A stretch of 20,000 bases of DNA from an uncultured virus (IMG/VR IMGVR_UViG_3300031787_000087) (lineage: Duplodnaviria; Heunggongvirae; Uroviricota; Caudoviricetes). Location of the stretch: the IMG/VR virus record IMGVR_UViG_3300031787_000087; one strand, 5' to 3'. Positions 6,409 through 15,669 of the stretch are shown piece by piece. Each line of letters starts with the position of its first letter. The first letter of the stretch is position 1. The notes beneath the pieces were generated by a model, which worked only from the letters and a program-made list of their open reading frames with translations, searched no databases and had not been told where the DNA came from. The translations under genes and the position numbers were made by a program.

Positions 6409-8601
6409 ATGGACTTATTAGCATTAAAAAGAAGCCTTATGCCCATGAGCGGGCCTCAAGACAGTGGCGGTGGCGGTGGTGGCGGCGGTGCCCCAGCGGA
6501 TACTACGTCTGTTCAAACCCAAGACTTACCTGATTGGGCGAAACCTTATGCACAAGATGTACTGTCCAAGGGTAAGGCAGTAACAGACGTTAGTCAAAAT
6601 CCATATCAAGCATACGGTGGCGAGCGCGTAGCAGGGTTTACCCCACTACAACAACAGGCACAAACTGGCGCGGCTAATATTCAAACCGGGCCAGCAGGAT
6701 TCCAACAAGACGTCGGCGGGTACATGAACCCGTACATGAACCAGATTTTGGCTCCACGACTTGCCGAAGCCAATCGTCAATATGACATTAGCGGTATGCA
6801 GGCTAACACACAGGCTACTCAGGCAGGTGCATTTGGTGGTGGACGTCAGGCTTTGATGCAAGCTGAGAACGAGCGCAACCGCAACATGGGGTTACAGAGT
6901 ATCTATGGTCAAGGTCTGGATACTGCATTTGGTAATGCGCAAAACCAATACAACCAAGGTTTTAACCAAAACGTACAGACGCTTGGGTTGCAAAATCAAT
7001 TAGGTGCGCAACAACAGGCACAGACACAAAAAGGTTTAGATGTTGGGTATCAAGACTTCTTGACTCAGAAGAACTACCCATATCAGCAACTCAGTTACAT
7101 GGCTAACTTAGTTCGTGGTACTCCGATGGGAATGAACACACAATCTCAGGTCTATCAAGCGCCTCCTAATACGTTGGGACAACTTGGCGGTTTGGGTATG
7201 GGCGCTTACGGCTTAAGCAAAATGATGGCTGAAGGTGGCGAAGTCCATTCATATGCGGATGGTGGGGCAGTTCAAGGCTACAAATTGGGTGGAGATATAC
7301 CTGATCCAATGAACGACCCATATGAGATGGCGTCTGCTGTTGATAAATTAACTGATGAGCAGTTACAAGGCATTTTACGTAACCCATCTTCTCCAGCAGA
7401 GTTCCGTGCTGCACAAGATGAAATGGCTATGCGTGCTTCTGAGCAACGCGGGGTAGCCAGCGGCATTACGCCTGAGATGGCTAACAGAATGGCTGGTGGC
7501 GGTGTAGTTGCTTTTGCTGATGGAGACCTAATTACAGACCCACAATTTGGTGGTTCAACTAGCACATATGAGCCTCCTGAAAAATTATCTATGAGTGAAG
7601 TGCAAAAAATAGTTGATAGCGCAAGAAATCGAGGAGAAACTATAGGACTCTCACAAATACAAGATATTATGGATGGCAGAGGCAGTTATGCTAAAGAACA
7701 AATAAAAGCAGCTAAAGAAAATTTAAGGCTTGCCAACATACAAAACCAACCAGACTCTGGTTCTACATTAAACGCTGTTTCTACTAGTAACAAGATAGCC
7801 ACTGCTCCCGTAAAAGATAAATTAAACCAACAGAAAGTTACAAAACCCGGTATTACTGCTGGCGCTGGTTCTACCCCATCTAAAGAACCGTCTTTTATAG
7901 ACGACCTTAAAACAGCGCAAGAATTTTTGAGAGACCCAGAGAGTGAAGCTCGTGCTAAAAAAGTTGAAGCTTCTATTGAGGCACTCAAGAAACAACCTGA
8001 AGAAATTAAAAAGCAAGGGTTAGCTAACCTTCTTACCGTTGGCGGGTTTGGTATGGCTCAAGCTGCTTCGCAACCCGGAACACGGCGTGGTCTTGCAGGA
8101 GTTATCCAAAGTGCTTCTAGAGCAGGTCCCGGTGTGGCTCAAGCTGCGATGGATCAACAGAAACTTGTACGCGCTTCACAAGATAACGCAGCCAAACTGG
8201 ATATTGAATATCAGAAGTACAGAATTGCTGAAAGCAGGGGCAATAAACAAGGCATGATATCTGCTGCTTCTAATATTCGCATGATGCGTCAACAGCAAGC
8301 TCAGTTGGATGAAACAAGACGCAGCAATATAGCTAAAGAAGGTCTAGAAGGTCAACGTTACGCACTATTAAAGAGTCAATACGCTAACAAGTCTATGACT
8401 CCGTACATAAATGCATATAGTAAAGCCGAAGATCGTGCTATACAAGCAGCAAATGGTTACATGAAAAGTCGTTCTGGCATGATGGATAAACGCCCATATC
8501 CAGAAATAGTTGAAGAATTTGCTAAAAAATACCGCAAAAATGCAGGTGCTTCTATAGGGTTTGGCCCAACAGGTAACACGTACGATACTGACGAAGATTA
8601 A
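6409..8601 (+). CDS. DNA ejection / pilot protein (P22 gp7/gp20-like position)
   Basis: 730 aa. Short leader plus Gly8, LPDWAKPY, YQAYGGERVAGFTPLQQQA, YMNPY, AFGGGRQ; Gln-rich helices and Gly-rich hydrophobic segments. GAGGT RBS. Confidence 0.7.
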   Translation: MDLLALKRSLMPMSGPQDSGGGGGGGGAPADTTSVQTQDLPDWAKPYAQDVLSKGKAVTDVSQNPYQAYGGERVAGFTPLQQQAQTGAANIQTGPAGFQQDVGGYMNPYMNQILAPRLAEANRQYDISGMQANTQATQAGAFGGGRQALMQAENERNRNMGLQSIYGQGLDTAFGNAQNQYNQGFNQNVQTLGLQNQLGAQQQAQTQKGLDVGYQDFLTQKNYPYQQLSYMANLVRGTPMGMNTQSQVYQAPPNTLGQLGGLGMGAYGLSKMMAEGGEVHSYADGGAVQGYKLGGDIPDPMNDPYEMASAVDKLTDEQLQGILRNPSSPAEFRAAQDEMAMRASEQRGVASGITPEMANRMAGGGVVAFADGDLITDPQFGGSTSTYEPPEKLSMSEVQKIVDSARNRGETIGLSQIQDIMDGRGSYAKEQIKAAKENLRLANIQNQPDSGSTLNAVSTSNKIATAPVKDKLNQQKVTKPGITAGAGSTPSKEPSFIDDLKTAQEFLRDPESEARAKKVEASIEALKKQPEEIKKQGLANLLTVGGFGMAQAASQPGTRRGLAGVIQSASRAGPGVAQAAMDQQKLVRASQDNAAKLDIEYQKYRIAESRGNKQGMISAASNIRMMRQQQAQLDETRRSNIAKEGLEGQRYALLKSQYANKSMTPYINAYSKAEDRAIQAANGYMKSRSGMMDKRPYPEIVEEFAKKYRKNAGASIGFGPTGNTYDTDED

Positions 8602-8613
8602 TAAAGGGCTACT

Positions 8614-11600
8614 ATGGCGTTGTATAAAGTCCGAGGACCTGGTGGCAAACTTCATGAGTTCAAAGGGCCTGAAGGTTTATCGCAAAACTTCGTTAATTCG
8701 ATGGCGCAAGATTACTTTGAAGCGCCAGCTCCTGTTGTCGCTCCAATAGAAGAAAAGGGCGCAACTGGTTTCATTCCGTCCGTCATGCGTGGCGGTCGTG
8801 GCATCTCCTCTTTATTGGGTGATGTTGCTCCAGCCATGATTGGCAAAGCGTTTGGCGCTGATGAGTACGCTAAGAAACAAATGCAGGAAGCTGCTGCATA
8901 TCAACAAGAAACTCAAAAACTTTATCCCGCAGAAGTTGCGTCATACAAAGATATTGATAGTGTTGGCAAAGCGCTAACGTATATCAAGGAATCTATTGGC
9001 GAAGCCATACCGTCCATCCTGCCTAGTATTCTTACTGGTGGTGCGGCGGCAATGATAGGTCGCCCTGCTATTGTGGCGGCAGAAAAAGCAGCGCAAGACT
9101 TTGCAGCTAAAGAAGTTGCACGCGCTGCCGCTAAGAATATTCTTACGCAAGAAAGTATTGAGGGGATCAAGAAAGCCGCACTAGATGTAGGCATGAAGGA
9201 AGCCCAAAAAATTGCGCTTAAATATCAAGCCGCTGGTGCATTGACTGGTTCTGCAGCACAGAACATCCCTGATGTTTATCAAAACATTTATGAGGCGACA
9301 GGTAAAGAAGACCTTGGCGCGGCTCTAGCGTTTGGTTCATTCAATGCTGCACTAGATGCAATTACGCCTGTCGCCTTGTTACGCAAGATGAGTAAGGCTG
9401 GCCTCAAGCCAGAAGAAGTTGCAGCCGCATGGTACAAGCGTGCTGGTAAAGGTGCAGCGCAAGGCTTCGTCACTGAAGGTGGTACTGAGGCATTACAAGA
9501 AGTATCGTCCGCCGCTGCTGAAAAGTTTGTTGATAAGAATCAGCAGTTTTTCTCTGAGAAGAACTTTGAGCGCTTTATTAACGCTGGCCTTAAAGGTGGA
9601 TTTGGTGGCGCAGGTATAACTGCGGCTACTGATGTGGCGTTCGGTAAAGGGCCAGAAGCACCTATTACTCAAACTGGTGAAGATCAGACTCAGCAACAAG
9701 AACAAGTTGAACCACCACCCCCACCGCCCGGTACTAAGACTGCCCCTGCATTCACTGGCGATGAAGAATTTAAGATTCATCCAGAAGGTTTTAATCCCCC
9801 TCAAGCCCCAGCACCTCCTGCTGGCGCGGTTACATCACTGCCTACTAATCCTGACATCGATGAAAAGCAAAAGCAGTACGACAAACGTGAAGCAGAAATT
9901 GCAGAACTAAAAGCTAAGAACGGTGCGCCACAGCATATTCAAAGCAAGATAAATAAGAACCTTAAATTAAAGGCGCAGATAGATGCAGCACGTACCGCGC
10001 TTGCCCAAGCGCCTACAACAGGAGAAGAAAATGTTGGACAACCTATCACTCAAACAGGTGGAGAAGGCGCTGGCATATCTGGCGCAGCCAGTGCAAACGC
10101 ACCCGCCGGAGGGCTTGGAGGAGCTGAACCCCCAGGAATGGTTCGTACTGGAGAGGATGCTACAGGCGCTGATCTCGGAGAAACTGCACAGCCCACTCCA
10201 GTAAATGAATTAACACCAGAACAAGTAGCTCAAAAGTTAAATGACGACCAAGCAGCGATGGCGGCTGCCAGAGAATCTATTGGGAAAAAAGCGACACCAG
10301 CGGGACCACAAGTAAAGTCTGTTCAAAAAGACTTAGATGAACTCAATAGTTTGTTTGGTGATGACGGCTTGCCATCTAAAGGTACTGCACGTCGTACTAA
10401 AGCACAGATCGCGGAAGATGAAGACCGCGATGCTAAATTAAATGAGATAGGTCAAAACTACGGATTAACTCGTAAAAAAGACGAGACTCAACGTGAGTAT
10501 GCCGCACGTATTAAAGACGCTGGCAAATATGAAATAAAGCGTCAAGCTGAAGCAACCGAAGGGATGCCTGATACTCAGATTCCAGAAACGGAAACAGCCA
10601 AGCAAGAACTTAAAAAGCCAACACTGTATAAAAATTCCATCACGGATGAGCAACGTCAGATGTATGACGATATGGTGGAAGAGTACAACGGCGCTATTGA
10701 GACAGCAAGAAGAGAAGCCGAAGAAGCGTTAAAAGATAAAGCTGCGTTAGGGTCTACTGAAGCTATAAAAAAGAATGTTGAAAAAGCGCAGGCTAATAGC
10801 GTAGATCAAGAGCTTCCAATATTTGACAACCTGACCGATGATGAAGTACGTAAGTATTTTGGTGAGCATATTGTTCGCAATAGTTACGATGAGCATTTAA
10901 AAGCTGCGCAAGCTTTGTCAGATTACATGTCTGATAAACGGTTTGAGAGTCGTGCTGCTGGTAAAGAAACTCAAACCAAAGAACAGAATGATGCTGATAA
11001 AGCAGCGGCTGTTGCAGAAGTAGTAGCGCAAGACAACTACATGAGCGTCAGAGATGCGTATGGTAGAAAGACTGGGCTATCTTATAGATTCCCTGCATGG
11101 AATGCTCTATCGCAAGCAAGCAAAGATTTATATCAAGCAATTAATGATGTCAATTCTGCGATGGAGCAGGATATGGCATTTCGTGCCATAAAGAAACAAA
11201 TCCAGAAAGAACTGCTAGATAAGCAGACTGAAGAAAATATCAAGGAAGCAAAGCAGCAGTCTTACAGAGAGATGCTGGTAGCCGCAGAACGAGCACGTAA
11301 AGGTCAACCGGCTGGTAAAGGCGTACTTCTTCCAGACAATATTCTCAAGAAACTACTATCTGGCGATATAGCTGGTGTACTTAAATACCTTAATGAAGAA
11401 GGTAAGGGCGTCAAGGCTCAAACTAAATTTGGCAATATGTTCTCGCGCCAGATTTTCCGTCTGTTGGCGGGCGCATTACAAAACATAGAAGACTTTAAAG
11501 TTAACGTCGTATACGACGAGAACATGATCTATGACGATCTTGGTACATATGATGCCAATAGCAATACGTTTTATTTCGGTCCTAACGGTATGGACGAAGC

Positions 11601-14600
11601 TACCGTCCTGCATGAATTAACCCATGCTGCTACTGTAAAACTTATCCATCAATACTACACTGATAAGAGCAAACTAGATGCTCGCACAGTCAAGGCAGTT
11701 GAACATCTAATCAATGTAGCTAACCTAGCTAAAGCTGAACTGGGTAGTAAATATAAAAACGCATTTGAAAATATTTACGAGTTCATTGCTTATGCAATGA
11801 CTGACTTAGATTTCCAACATGATTTAGCGCAGATACAAGTAGAGAGTGCAGCAACTGTTACAGGGCAAGTTAAACGCACTCCATACTCTCAGCGTGAACA
11901 ACGCCAAGTAAGCATTACTGGCTATGACACCATGCTTGACAACTTGTGGAACTACTTCACAGGTACGTTGGCATACATGTATCGTCTCTTCTATCCAAGA
12001 CAGCAAAAACAAGCGATCTTGATGCCTACTGAGTTGACGGGCAGACCGCGTGGTACTAAGAAAGAGGCGGTCTCTGAAGCAGAAAATATAAAAGCGCTAG
12101 ATAAGATAAACAGAAAGCTTCGTAAAAAAGGTGACCTCAATGAGCAAGATGTTGAAGAAAGCACGACTGGATTAAAACCCGGTGACGTTGTACCAGTAAA
12201 TGAAGACACAGCCGCTAGGTCACCAGATGAAGCTTCAGCTGAATTCAAAGCCGCATTTGATCAAGAGAAAAAAGAGAGGCGTGATGAACTAGCGCCTATC
12301 TATGGTGATCTTGTAGACAAAGGTGGTGTCACTAATCTCAAGCGCGAAATATTACGTGAACCAGGATTCAAGGGTAACTTGCTTCTTGAAGCTGCGGATG
12401 TAATTCAACAACTATTTGCTGCGCCTGTAGGTGGCATTGAACAGTTAGGTGGCAAGGGAGGCTTTGGTTCAGTACTGCAATCCAAAGGTACAGCTAAAAC
12501 TACAAAGCAGGCAACAACTCCTCCCGCACAAACAGATGCGCAGATTACGCAAAAGGCTTTAGGCATCGTATCAATCAAAGAACGTAGCGCTAAATCATTG
12601 TTACGTAACATATTTTCTAAAGCTGGATACGATACTGCAGTTGAATACTTTCAAAGTGACCGTCATCCATTAAAAATGGTGTTTGATCGTGGGCGTATAT
12701 TTGGTGTTGTAGATGTAATTGGTAAAAAAGCAAATGATGTTTACACCGAAGTAAGTCTTTCTATTGGTAAAGCTACAGATATATACGCAAGGCAAATGAA
12801 ACCGCTTGCGGACGATGTCAATTCTGCTGTAGAAGCGTACGCTAAAAAACTTAACATTTCTGTTAAAGATGCGTTAGCTAACTTGCATCTGATACTTCAA
12901 GCACGTCATGAGCCAGAGCGTCGCCATATCAAGTTTTTACTAGATGTGCCGCTTGACGATACACCATCTAATAAACGATTCCAACTTGGTAACGAGTATT
13001 ATTCTGCGGCTGGTTTACGGCAAGCAATTCTTGACATACTTGCTGAACCTGCTCCTGGACTTAGCGATCAACAACGCACTGCCCGCGCTCAAAAGTTACG
13101 GCAGATGCTCGAAACAGTTGTAGCTGATCCTTCGTCACATCAAAAAATAAATGCTAAAGGTGAGCTTACAAAAGCGATTGAATTTGACGAGCAAGCTGAA
13201 ATGTACAGCGTGATTGCTGGTCGTTCACCTAATGAGATTCAAGCATTCCGCAACACGTTAGATATCAGGGCAAACAAAGCTGAGATAGATGCTGTATCAG
13301 ACGCATTGAGAAAGGTGCATAAACAGACTATTGCACTAAACAAGGAGGCCAATTATTGGTCTGAGCCTGTTGCTAACATCGTAGACTTCTACGGTTTCAA
13401 TGATTACGTACCATTTAAAGGTAGACCAGATCAACGTACGATTGACGAAGAATTTAACTTTGAAACTAAACGTATTGGCGGTGATTATCAAGATGCGCAA
13501 GATAGATTTGAAGGGCGCGAGTCTGAATCTGAAAACCCGGTATTGCAATCTCTTGCTGATGGTGCAACTGCTTCCCTACGCGCTGGTCGTAAAGATACGC
13601 CCCAGACAATCGTAAACGCAATAAACGCAAAGATTATTCGTGGGCACAAAGTTGATACCATAACATTCGCCGATCGTTTTTCTGGGCGCACAACTAAAAA
13701 AGATATTACAGGTACAAACAAAATCTTTTTATATAAAAAAGATGGAACTATTGACGTTTACCAGATTGACGATAACAAAATAGCGCAATCCATCAAGCGT
13801 AGTTATAGAACTTCTAACCCTATATGGGATAGAGCCGACATGATTACTAGCGGTATTGGTCAGACTCACACACGCTACAACCCCGCCTTCGCTCCAATGA
13901 ACTTTGTGCGTGATGCATTCACCAACGCTGGAATAATTGGCGCTGAGTTTGACCCAATCACAGGCGGTAAGTTGCTGACTGGTATGGCATCTGATGTTGC
14001 TAACAACGGTCTTGCTAGATCATTAAATTTTGCAAAACTCTATGCCGAAGGTAAGTTTGATCAAATAGAAAAGCTTGCTGGGGCTGGCAAACCTTACGAA
14101 AGCCTGAGTAGTAAAGAGCGTTACTACCGTGATTTAGACTATTATGTAAAGAAGGGTGGTCGCGTTTCTTATCTGCAGGGTGTGGCTGCTAAAGGTGCGT
14201 TAGATCAACTTATTAAAGAAGTTGGACGCTCTGGCATTCTAAGAACTAAAGACCAAATAGATAAGTTCATTGATATCTATAACGATATGTTTGAATTATC
14301 TAGCCGTGTAGCGGCGTATAGATTGTTGAAAGACCAGTACTACCATGAGAATCTAGCAAACAAAATGAGCGTGGCTGATGCGCAAGAAGATGCAAAAATT
14401 CGTGCAGTTACATATGCAAAGAACCTTGCTAACTTTGAGCAGGTCGGTAAGTGGGGCAAGCAGGCTGGTGCGCTATTCATGTTCTTCCGTCCTGCCGCTA
14501 CTGGTGCAGTACGCGCTATTGAGGCGTTGGCTCCAGCATTTAGTTTTAATGAAGAAAACTTCCGTAAAGAAGCGATAGCCGAAGGTCGTACCCCACAGCA

Positions 14601-15669
14601 GATCGAGAGAGCCGTGGCTATTATGCAGAAGCGTCAGTATGGTGCCAGACGCATGATGGTGACGATGACAGGAATTGGCGTAGCGTTCTATACGATGGCG
14701 TTGATGATGGCTGGTGACGATGAAGAGGGTCGCAACCGTGTTGCTACAGATGACATGGCACGTTGGACTCGTTACGTTAGAATCTTTATTCCTGGTTTTG
14801 AGAAACCATTGCAAATATCTTGGGGCTTCGGACCTGGCGCTTTTGCTGCGGCTGGGGCACAGATTGCATCTATGGGTTCAGGTCGTGTATCGATTGGAGA
14901 AGCGCTCTCCAACATTGTTACTGTTGGGCTTGATTCATTCTTACCATTGCCATTCTCACGTATTAGCCCAATAGAAAATTTCCCTGCATGGGCTATGGAT
15001 TCGGTAACCCCATCCGCGTTCCGTCCGTTCTTTGAGTATGTGATGAACATGGATGGTTTGGGTCGTGAGATTTACAACAATCGTCAAACACGTTATGGTG
15101 ATGCGTATACAGGTGGGGATAGCATTCCTGAAGCATACAAATTAGCAGCACGTACGCTATTTGACGCTACCGACGGAGCAATCGACTGGAGTCCAAACAC
15201 AATGTACTTCTTCGCTAGCAACTACTTTGATGGTATGGCAAAGATGGGTACAGCGGCTACTAACTTAAGTTACACAGTCGCGGGCAACAAAGACTTTGAC
15301 CCCAAGCACGACTTGCCGTTTATTGGTAGTTTCATTGGCACTAAGTCCAACGTAGACGCACGCGAATTTAGCAAAGTTGAAGATAAAATTAAGGCAATGG
15401 ATAAGCGCATAAATGCGTTGAAAGATAAGCCAGAGGCGCTAGAAAGGTACCTTGACTCTAATCCAGATGCGTATGCTGCTGTTGAGTTCTACAACGAACA
15501 AGTTAACGGACAACTACGTGAAGTGCGTGCAGTAGCAAATCAAGTTAGAGCTAACGGTGAGTTAACTCCACGTGAACGCAAACTGCAACTGGAAGAGATT
15601 AACGGCATATCAAGCACTATAAAACGTCAACTGTTAAATGTGTTTGAAGAACTAGATATTAAACCCTAG
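8614..15669 (+). CDS. Large polyvalent ejection protein with a zincin-like metallopeptidase domain and an LPD38-like C-terminal domain
   Basis: 2351 aa. N-terminal Ala/Gly-rich membrane-type helices (TEGGTEALQE); Pro-rich linker; HELTH at 11611-11625 with a downstream YEFIAY; C-terminal NPAFAPMNFVRD, ALFMFFRPA, ISWGFG, SFLPL, RPFFEYVMNMDGLGREIY pattern typical of LPD38-containing proteins. Confidence 0.75.
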   Translation: MALYKVRGPGGKLHEFKGPEGLSQNFVNSMAQDYFEAPAPVVAPIEEKGATGFIPSVMRGGRGISSLLGDVAPAMIGKAFGADEYAKKQMQEAAAYQQETQKLYPAEVASYKDIDSVGKALTYIKESIGEAIPSILPSILTGGAAAMIGRPAIVAAEKAAQDFAAKEVARAAAKNILTQESIEGIKKAALDVGMKEAQKIALKYQAAGALTGSAAQNIPDVYQNIYEATGKEDLGAALAFGSFNAALDAITPVALLRKMSKAGLKPEEVAAAWYKRAGKGAAQGFVTEGGTEALQEVSSAAAEKFVDKNQQFFSEKNFERFINAGLKGGFGGAGITAATDVAFGKGPEAPITQTGEDQTQQQEQVEPPPPPPGTKTAPAFTGDEEFKIHPEGFNPPQAPAPPAGAVTSLPTNPDIDEKQKQYDKREAEIAELKAKNGAPQHIQSKINKNLKLKAQIDAARTALAQAPTTGEENVGQPITQTGGEGAGISGAASANAPAGGLGGAEPPGMVRTGEDATGADLGETAQPTPVNELTPEQVAQKLNDDQAAMAAARESIGKKATPAGPQVKSVQKDLDELNSLFGDDGLPSKGTARRTKAQIAEDEDRDAKLNEIGQNYGLTRKKDETQREYAARIKDAGKYEIKRQAEATEGMPDTQIPETETAKQELKKPTLYKNSITDEQRQMYDDMVEEYNGAIETARREAEEALKDKAALGSTEAIKKNVEKAQANSVDQELPIFDNLTDDEVRKYFGEHIVRNSYDEHLKAAQALSDYMSDKRFESRAAGKETQTKEQNDADKAAAVAEVVAQDNYMSVRDAYGRKTGLSYRFPAWNALSQASKDLYQAINDVNSAMEQDMAFRAIKKQIQKELLDKQTEENIKEAKQQSYREMLVAAERARKGQPAGKGVLLPDNILKKLLSGDIAGVLKYLNEEGKGVKAQTKFGNMFSRQIFRLLAGALQNIEDFKVNVVYDENMIYDDLGTYDANSNTFYFGPNGMDEATVLHELTHAATVKLIHQYYTDKSKLDARTVKAVEHLINVANLAKAELGSKYKNAFENIYEFIAYAMTDLDFQHDLAQIQVESAATVTGQVKRTPYSQREQRQVSITGYDTMLDNLWNYFTGTLAYMYRLFYPRQQKQAILMPTELTGRPRGTKKEAVSEAENIKALDKINRKLRKKGDLNEQDVEESTTGLKPGDVVPVNEDTAARSPDEASAEFKAAFDQEKKERRDELAPIYGDLVDKGGVTNLKREILREPGFKGNLLLEAADVIQQLFAAPVGGIEQLGGKGGFGSVLQSKGTAKTTKQATTPPAQTDAQITQKALGIVSIKERSAKSLLRNIFSKAGYDTAVEYFQSDRHPLKMVFDRGRIFGVVDVIGKKANDVYTEVSLSIGKATDIYARQMKPLADDVNSAVEAYAKKLNISVKDALANLHLILQARHEPERRHIKFLLDVPLDDTPSNKRFQLGNEYYSAAGLRQAILDILAEPAPGLSDQQRTARAQKLRQMLETVVADPSSHQKINAKGELTKAIEFDEQAEMYSVIAGRSPNEIQAFRNTLDIRANKAEIDAVSDALRKVHKQTIALNKEANYWSEPVANIVDFYGFNDYVPFKGRPDQRTIDEEFNFETKRIGGDYQDAQDRFEGRESESENPVLQSLADGATASLRAGRKDTPQTIVNAINAKIIRGHKVDTITFADRFSGRTTKKDITGTNKIFLYKKDGTIDVYQIDDNKIAQSIKRSYRTSNPIWDRADMITSGIGQTHTRYNPAFAPMNFVRDAFTNAGIIGAEFDPITGGKLLTGMASDVANNGLARSLNFAKLYAEGKFDQIEKLAGAGKPYESLSSKERYYRDLDYYVKKGGRVSYLQGVAAKGALDQLIKEVGRSGILRTKDQIDKFIDIYNDMFELSSRVAAYRLLKDQYYHENLANKMSVADAQEDAKIRAVTYAKNLANFEQVGKWGKQAGALFMFFRPAATGAVRAIEALAPAFSFNEENFRKEAIAEGRTPQQIERAVAIMQKRQYGARRMMVTMTGIGVAFYTMALMMAGDDEEGRNRVATDDMARWTRYVRIFIPGFEKPLQISWGFGPGAFAAAGAQIASMGSGRVSIGEALSNIVTVGLDSFLPLPFSRISPIENFPAWAMDSVTPSAFRPFFEYVMNMDGLGREIYNNRQTRYGDAYTGGDSIPEAYKLAARTLFDATDGAIDWSPNTMYFFASNYFDGMAKMGTAATNLSYTVAGNKDFDPKHDLPFIGSFIGTKSNVDAREFSKVEDKIKAMDKRINALKDKPEALERYLDSNPDAYAAVEFYNEQVNGQLREVRAVANQVRANGELTPRERKLQLEEINGISSTIKRQLLNVFEELDIKP
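10031..10204 (+). CDS. Candidate overprinted 57-aa protein in the +1 frame of the polyvalent gene
   Basis: AGGAG-AAGAAA-ATG; MLDNLSLKQVEKALAYLAQPVQTHPPEGLEELNPQEWFVLERMLQALISEKLHSPLQ*; two amphipathic helices; lies under a low-complexity linker of the host frame. Confidence 0.6.
   Translation: MLDNLSLKQVEKALAYLAQPVQTHPPEGLEELNPQEWFVLERMLQALISEKLHSPLQ

Follow-up and report, generated by a model that had tools for sequence, protein, structure and literature searches.

Does a short open reading frame (ORF) that lies out of step inside a giant phage gene encode a protein, and what would that protein do? The question was raised by a 20,000-nucleotide stretch of DNA, called the window here, from an uncultured virus of the Caudoviricetes (IMG/VR record IMGVR_UViG_3300031787_000087), a double-stranded DNA (dsDNA) tailed phage of about 40-65 kb. 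Within a 2351-codon ORF at 8614-15669, which encodes a giant virion-associated protein, a first-pass annotation of the window had pointed to AGGAG-AAGAAA-ATG as the opening of a hidden 57-residue gene in the +1 frame. Both the start signals and the phase were confirmed from the sequence and from frame arithmetic. The AGGAG is followed by the 6-nt spacer AAGAAA and by an ATG at 10031, one base out of phase with the giant ORF (10031-8614 = 3x472+1). The small ORF corresponds to codons 473-530 of the giant gene and lies fully within it, on the same strand and in another frame, and this layout was the same in 103/103 related loci. The two elements are as follows.

10031..10204, + strand: the nested gene, encoding protein P0001; 57 codons and a TAA stop codon (10202-10204); described by its translation, its relatives, selection tests and an AlphaFold2 (AF2) model.
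10020..10024, + strand: AGGAG, the Shine-Dalgarno sequence of the nested gene, 6 nt 5' of its ATG.

On the comparison of related sequences, 10031-10204 is almost certainly a genuine protein-coding gene. Seen in the window by itself, its start region is less convincing. The first-pass annotation had placed the ribosome-binding site (RBS) among the best of the window, and this stands in so far as none of the 12 other main ORFs has AGGAG ahead of its start. However, the pattern AGGAG-N4-9-ATG occurred 3 times in the window, which is not above the 3.4 +/- 1.9 occurrences given by chance. Moreover, a longer ORF of 92 residues (9632-9910, + strand) is present in the same +1 frame just 5' of the nested gene. 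The product of this ORF is basic and junk-like, and it was used as a negative control: no match to it was found at the equivalent place in 16 related loci, while the main frame of the same bases did match. The chance-level count and the longer, unconserved neighbor both speak against a gene at 10031. They would suit the explanation that the +1 frame stays open only because the spacer encoded in the main frame is rich in G/A/P/T, a composition which makes +1 stops rare, or that the segment is an RNA or DNA element. Because an RBS and an open frame are at chance level in a single sequence, comparison with relatives was needed to lift the nested gene above chance.

Relatives were collected from viral contigs in two ways. 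A search with the giant protein gave 26 loci, and a search with a profile of the nested peptide gave 323 confirmed stretches, of which the best 80 were examined. The combined set was 103 loci (some contigs included twice) with 68 distinct peptides. All 15 first-round homologues that span the region (52-65% identity) had a +1 ORF whose start and stop aligned with those of the window, and a further locus, L012, likewise carries it. In 80/80 profile loci (76 by script parsing and 4 confirmed separately), the nested ORF lay inside a giant ORF, one base behind, and the enclosing ORFs encode about 1900-2700 residues where the locus is uncut. Eight distant loci also contained a +1 relative, detected by a profile from which these loci had been left out (E 1e-21 to 2e-5). 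The giant proteins of these eight are 33-40% identical to that of the window, and 6/8 match it in the N-terminal domain only.

The boundaries of the ORF were conserved as well. Among the 68 distinct peptides, 65 started with ATG and 3 with GTG, the stop codon was TAG in 36, TAA in 29 and TGA in 3, and the length was 57-63 residues. A Shine-Dalgarno-like motif (AGGAG, GGAG, GAGG, AGGA or similar) was found 3-10 nt 5' of the start, mostly 6 nt, in 68/68. Since the spacing between motif and start varies, the motif falls in differing main-frame phases among relatives. Interruption of the +1 frame by stops, or loss of its RBS or ATG, in homologous genes had been set beforehand as refuting the gene, and the arrangement was kept in 103/103 loci. 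The proposal that the small protein is genetically locked to the giant virion gene was also borne out by these loci, in which it always lies in +1 inside a giant-gene homologue, and no free-standing (non-nested) copy was found among them. At L008:1-102 (- strand), a partial copy of 34 residues (E 5e-18) was seen inverted at the very start of the contig, opposite in strand to the C-terminal part of the giant gene; it is probably a contig-end assembly artefact.

The same start regions bear on a second route into the +1 frame, namely programmed frameshifting, which would produce an N-terminal-domain protein with a 57-residue alternative C-terminus and would give AGGAG the role of stimulator. prfB and dnaX provide examples of frameshifting stimulated by an internal Shine-Dalgarno-like sequence, and many relatives have no +1 stop for tens of codons ahead of the start (median 23). 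On the other hand, the first codon of the nested ORF is always a start codon, the bases between motif and start vary freely with no shared slippery sequence by eye, and the +1 sequence 5' of the start is unconserved. In addition, a +1-frame stop lies 5 codons or fewer 5' of the start in 14/68 distinct sequences, which favors independent initiation over frameshifting. Frameshifting at this site is thus considered extremely improbable.

A full profile search of 1.84 billion representatives gave 286 clusters (50% identity) at E<=1e-3 and 63 at E<=1e-10. The 150 proteins listed were 47-194 residues long, the longer ones being same-frame upstream extensions, and the match reached within a few residues of the protein end in 147/150. 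The exceptions were P0170 and P0213, in which the match ends 6 residues short, and the chimera-like P0194. In P0194 (194 residues), residues 9-47 match the nested family and are followed by unrelated sequence, probably from a chimeric or frameshifted contig. No relative, and hence no prophage form, was found in bacterial and archaeal genomes. The first-pass annotation had called the gene unannotated, and this has to be corrected: automatic pipelines have at times called the nested ORF in public metagenomes, as a nameless hypothetical protein. Among 134 database matches to the nested protein, none had a Pfam domain and none was named beyond "hypothetical protein". Gene finders that forbid same-strand nesting would miss such genes. 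For annotation, the 286 clusters represent a deeply conserved small-protein family, present in every sampled relative.

Selection was then compared between the frames that share these bases. In 13 non-redundant sequences, the mean pairwise amino acid identity over the same DNA was 59% for the nested frame, 39% for the main frame and 42% for the third frame, and the nested identity exceeded the main-frame identity in 78/78 pairs. In an alignment made on the nested peptides, the variability at the first, second and third nested codon positions was 0.364, 0.216 and 0.438, respectively. This is the normal coding pattern, and it means that the main-frame third positions vary least. Because this alignment rested on the nested peptides, the test was repeated with 11 whole genes, aligned on their main-frame proteins and divided into 160 segments of 40 columns. 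The third-position excess had an overall mean of +0.286 (standard deviation 0.10). The four segments over residues 467-536 gave -0.17 to -0.20; they were the sole negative segments of the 160, and the next lowest value was +0.074.

The distribution of silent changes pointed the same way. The nested ORFs of the window and its relative L001 differ at 19 bases; 18 of these changes are silent when read in the nested frame, and none is silent in the main frame. Across 22 independent close pairs with 255 differences, 195 were silent in the nested frame (about 23% expected; binomial p 1e-71) and 18 in the main frame (about 28% expected; binomial p 1e-16), the expectations being mutational opportunity under a uniform model and therefore rough. 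The tests of identity, codon position and silent change agree with the earlier suggestion that the nested frame bears the constraint and that the main frame drifts as a low-complexity spacer. The low complexity was evident from composition, since G/A/E/P/T account for 69% of residues 470-531 of the giant protein versus 38% of the whole protein. It is the small protein that is under selection, and the overlapping Gly/Ala/Pro/Thr/Glu-rich spacer of the giant protein is free to drift in amino acid sequence.

These results contradict the explanation by spacer composition or by an RNA or DNA element. Three-base periodicity in the nested frame and the excess of silent changes stand against it, together with the conservation of start, stop and length. 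The window gave no match in Rfam, the local RNA fold was unremarkable (z = -1.0), and a three-base pattern of variation is not what an RNA element would give. That the segment is no gene at all is barely conceivable on this evidence.

A review (PMC8227390) terms such constraint on one frame "asymmetric" or "segregated" evolution, mentions a proposal that disorder in one overlapping partner relieves the conflict, and cites the nested genes of phiX174 (B in A, E in D). In the overlap studied here, it is the giant protein's spacer that is disordered. The likeness to B/A and E/D lies in an out-of-frame nested phage gene, in asymmetric evolution and in disorder relieving the conflict (PMC8227390). 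There are also differences. phiX174 is a 5.4-kb single-stranded DNA phage under extreme size pressure, whereas the source here is a far longer dsDNA tailed phage. Moreover, it is the small nested protein that is ordered and better conserved here, and the disordered partner belongs to a 2351-residue protein. As the constraint on nested second positions dictates the main-frame third positions, codon usage would mirror current selection and not the ancestral frame. For the study of overlaps, the locus offers an unusually clean "segregated" example, with almost all of the constraint on the short nested frame and a host frame left as a spacer. What deserves attention is that the nested frame monopolises constraint so cleanly and that the arrangement has been kept so deeply.

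The small protein had been read as a helix, a Pro loop and a second helix, and the AF2 model matched this reading. From a 13-row alignment, helices were predicted at residues 7-18 and 34-53 with a Pro-rich loop between them (mean pLDDT 85.7). The near-invariant residues in a profile of 325 distinct sequences were M1, L5, E11, A13, L17, P26, L29, L32, W37, L40, L44, L47 and E50, and these positions outline two amphipathic helices with a few conserved acidic residues. The family is acidic, with a pI of 4.05-5.73 and a net charge of -1 to -8 among the 68 distinct peptides. The window peptide contains no cysteine and no long hydrophobic stretch, so a signal peptide with a lipobox cysteine, as in an o-spanin of the Rz1 kind, is absent from it.

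Lambda Rz1 is among the closest known arrangements. Rz encloses this complete small gene entirely, in the same orientation and shifted to the +1 frame; Rz1 has start signals of its own, and the two spanin products cooperate. The present gene shares with Rz1/Rz that it is nested wholly inside a larger phage gene, in +1 and with its own start signals, and the cooperation of Rz1 with Rz served as the model for reading the nested protein as a dedicated partner. Rz1 carries a signal sequence and a lipobox cysteine and is a lipoprotein of the outer membrane. In contrast, the nested protein lacks cysteine, its host gene encodes a giant virion protein and is not a lysis gene, and the host frame is an unconstrained spacer. 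In the full-text literature (subscription journals lie outside this coverage), no description was found of this gene or of any gene nested in a polyvalent-protein gene. As far as that literature shows, neither the protein family nor its host-gene context has been described, and out-of-frame nesting in phages was already known.

Given that the small gene is tied to the giant one, its possible function was considered together with the architecture of the giant protein. The features of the giant gene are as follows.

8614..15669, + strand: giant virion-associated polyvalent protein P0003; 2351 codons; last gene of the late structural operon.
8614..9663, + strand: conserved N-terminal domain, residues 1-350, defined by the conservation profile and by hidden Markov model (HMM), with phrog_6958 at residues 61-338.
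9664..11433, + strand: hypervariable, gap-rich linker, residues 351-940, in which the nested gene lies; column identity 0.03-0.35, gap fraction up to 0.73.
11611..11625, + strand: HELTH (HExxH) motif, residues 1000-1004, of a putative metallopeptidase.
14761..15294, + strand: LPD38 domain, residues 2050-2227 (Pfam PF18857, E 2.3e-14).

The conservation profile separated the giant protein into four parts: the N-terminal domain (1-350), the linker (351-940), an HExxH block (~950-1100) and, past a second variable stretch, a conserved C-terminal region (1250-2351). LPD38, a "large polyvalent protein-associated" domain, was the only Pfam domain detected. The match to phrog_6958, a virion structural protein family, had an E of 5e-11. 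In gene order, a holin, an endolysin and several large virion proteins come before the giant gene, and a primase/helicase on the other strand comes after it. The nearest record, G001 (100% identity over 1401 bases), has a head and tail module 5' of the region equivalent to the window, which indicates that the giant gene closes the late structural operon. Judging from this operon context, the giant product would be an ejected internal protein.

Three distant giant proteins, L113, L114 and L115 (2073, 1763 and 2184 residues), were compared over their whole length with that of the window. They share only the N-terminal domain with it (HMM E 1e-51 to 1e-67). Their C-terminal two-thirds were unrelated by BLASTP and HMM, the C-terminal profiles giving E 0.026 or worse. 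The nested gene was nevertheless present in all three. The HExxH block was present in L113 (E 1e-14) and partially matched in L115 (E 0.0016, with the motif region uncovered). In L114, which kept the nested gene, an HExxH motif was lacking and the match to the HExxH block was non-significant (E 0.12). The N-terminal domain was the only part of the giant protein that co-occurred with the nested gene in all relatives, and co-occurrence with the HExxH domain was not strict. As the nested gene is kept where only the N-terminal domain is shared, these results link it to the N-terminal module, or to the spacer after it, and not to the peptidase. The giant proteins are modular, with a constant N-terminal module (~340 residues) and exchangeable payloads.

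This comparison speaks against a partner of the peptidase. In the first-pass annotation, the HExxH metallopeptidase further along the same giant protein was a possible target, with the nested protein inhibiting it, chaperoning it or conferring immunity to it as part of an embedded effector-immunity pair. The HELTH motif is indeed kept in 11/11 aligned homologues, including the window's own, and the nested gene is found with it in each of them. However, the distant giants that keep the nested gene share the N-terminal domain only, the complete block is seen in L113 only, and L114 retains the nested gene with no HExxH motif. A role tied to the peptidase is therefore regarded as very improbable.

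We tentatively propose that the nested gene is a genuine one, with its own Shine-Dalgarno sequence and ATG, whose product helps the N-terminal module of the giant protein. Taken as a whole, with the role included, this proposal falls a little short of an even chance. The nested start signals would drive translation in a frame shifted by one base from that of the giant virion gene, presumably from the same late mRNA. No sigma-70-like promoter site was found on the + strand in 8000-11000, in a search whose consensus may not be that of the host. The product would be a soluble, acidic, cytoplasmic two-helix hairpin, and it would most likely serve as a dedicated chaperone or an assembly/packaging adaptor of the N-terminal module. 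Nesting would guarantee co-inheritance and co-expression of the two proteins.

Secreted or fibre proteins can be served by small, acidic, helical chaperones, such as the type III secretion chaperones and phage T4 gp57A. By analogy only, the nested protein is like them in being small, acidic and helical, in being encoded inside the gene of its presumed client and in its association with the N-terminal region of that client. The features on which the dedicated-chaperone analogy is built (small, acidic, helical, gene linked to the client) were all found in the nested protein. No sequence or fold similarity to those chaperones came to light in the family and structure searches, nesting is not a feature of those systems, and binding is presumed here.

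The main competing explanation accepts the same evidence for a real gene and makes its product independent of the giant protein. Its target would lie in the host (in anti-defence or host takeover, as the first-pass annotation had also suggested, or in the timing of lysis), and it might be co-packaged and ejected. The crowded late operon would offer no place other than the spacer where a second frame is free of cost. Small size and acidity, as seen in the nested protein, are common among phage proteins that inhibit those of the host. On the other hand, a late-operon position is poor timing for anti-defence unless the protein is packaged. An independent factor is also hard to reconcile with a linkage that has persisted with a single N-terminal domain family through deep divergence and exchange of the C-terminal modules, with the lack of a free-standing copy in the 103 loci and with the listed database matches that run to near the protein end. 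An independent product is possible on balance, and we consider it rather unlikely.

Several points weigh against the helper role itself. It is drawn only from co-occurrence, nesting and physico-chemical character. The co-occurrence with the N-terminal domain could simply reflect the location of the spacer, and for a small acidic protein expressed late, action on the host or packaging would be just as plausible. The AF2 model of the N-terminal domain (pLDDT 48.7) was too poor for a fold search or for inspection of an interface. Complex prediction for the nested protein with residues 1-345 of the N-terminal domain, made with alignments, scored 0.00 in two runs without controls and thus speaks neither for nor against binding. 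P0001 had no match among curated families in Pfam-A (E<=0.1), PHROGs v4 (E<=1e-3) or NCBIfam 20 (E<=0.01). In fold searches with the nested model nothing rose above background: the best E was 2.7 in the Protein Data Bank (PDB) with Foldseek and 0.64 in BFVD. A wide VIA-align search gave a best Z of 4.8, also not above background, and the ESM Atlas yielded no usable match. With a helical hairpin of only 57 residues, fold searches discriminate poorly. In cultured phages, tblastn with three members of the nested family returned no match or chance matches at E=1 only. No public RNA run was listed as containing this stretch.

A broader form of the helper proposal may be considered. The 57-residue protein could be an obligatory co-evolving partner of the N-terminal virion-targeting module across giant ejected phage proteins, either as a chaperone for packaging and ejection or as a small co-injected cargo, and the spacers of giant genes could generally be harbours that lock small genes to their clients. 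We find this broader form doubtful. If it were true, it would mean a hidden layer of phage coding capacity that is largely missed by standard gene callers. For phage biology, the nested gene points to a further component that goes with the N-terminal module of giant virion proteins in a widespread group of uncultured phages. Little is understood of how such proteins are packaged and ejected or deliver effectors. A 57-residue protein with a well-predicted structure is easy to synthesise and test.

Searches of cultured phages with other parts of the locus gave little similarity. The region 9400-10800 had no blastn match in cultured phages. With the giant protein, tblastn matched them in the C-terminal part only, at 22-23% identity, in Vibrio and Pasteurella phages. 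The N-terminal domain gave one weak tblastn match, gp58 of Pseudomonas phage UFV-P2 (E 5e-3 over 63 residues), and no nested relative was detectable in the UFV-P2 gp58 gene (best E 0.53). DNA nearly identical to window positions 8600-11600 was present in 20 public DNA runs from 17 studies, and 9 of these runs may be the source sample. The run labels (freshwater, lake, wetland, runoff, aquatic and "fungus metagenome") hint at a widespread freshwater phage.

Some minor observations were made elsewhere in the window. Residues 1650-1749 of the giant protein (13561-13860) showed a weak and non-significant resemblance to PDB chains of rifampin ADP-ribosyltransferase (E 0.38). Near the start of the window, a 58-residue ORF with a hydrophobic, transmembrane-like stretch (632-808, + strand) lies directly 5' of the holin gene (805-1203). 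It overlaps the end of a 212-residue ORF (36-674, + strand) whose product ends in a hydrophobic segment. Neither had a PHROG match; they are possible members of the lysis cassette, such as an antiholin or a spanin-like component.

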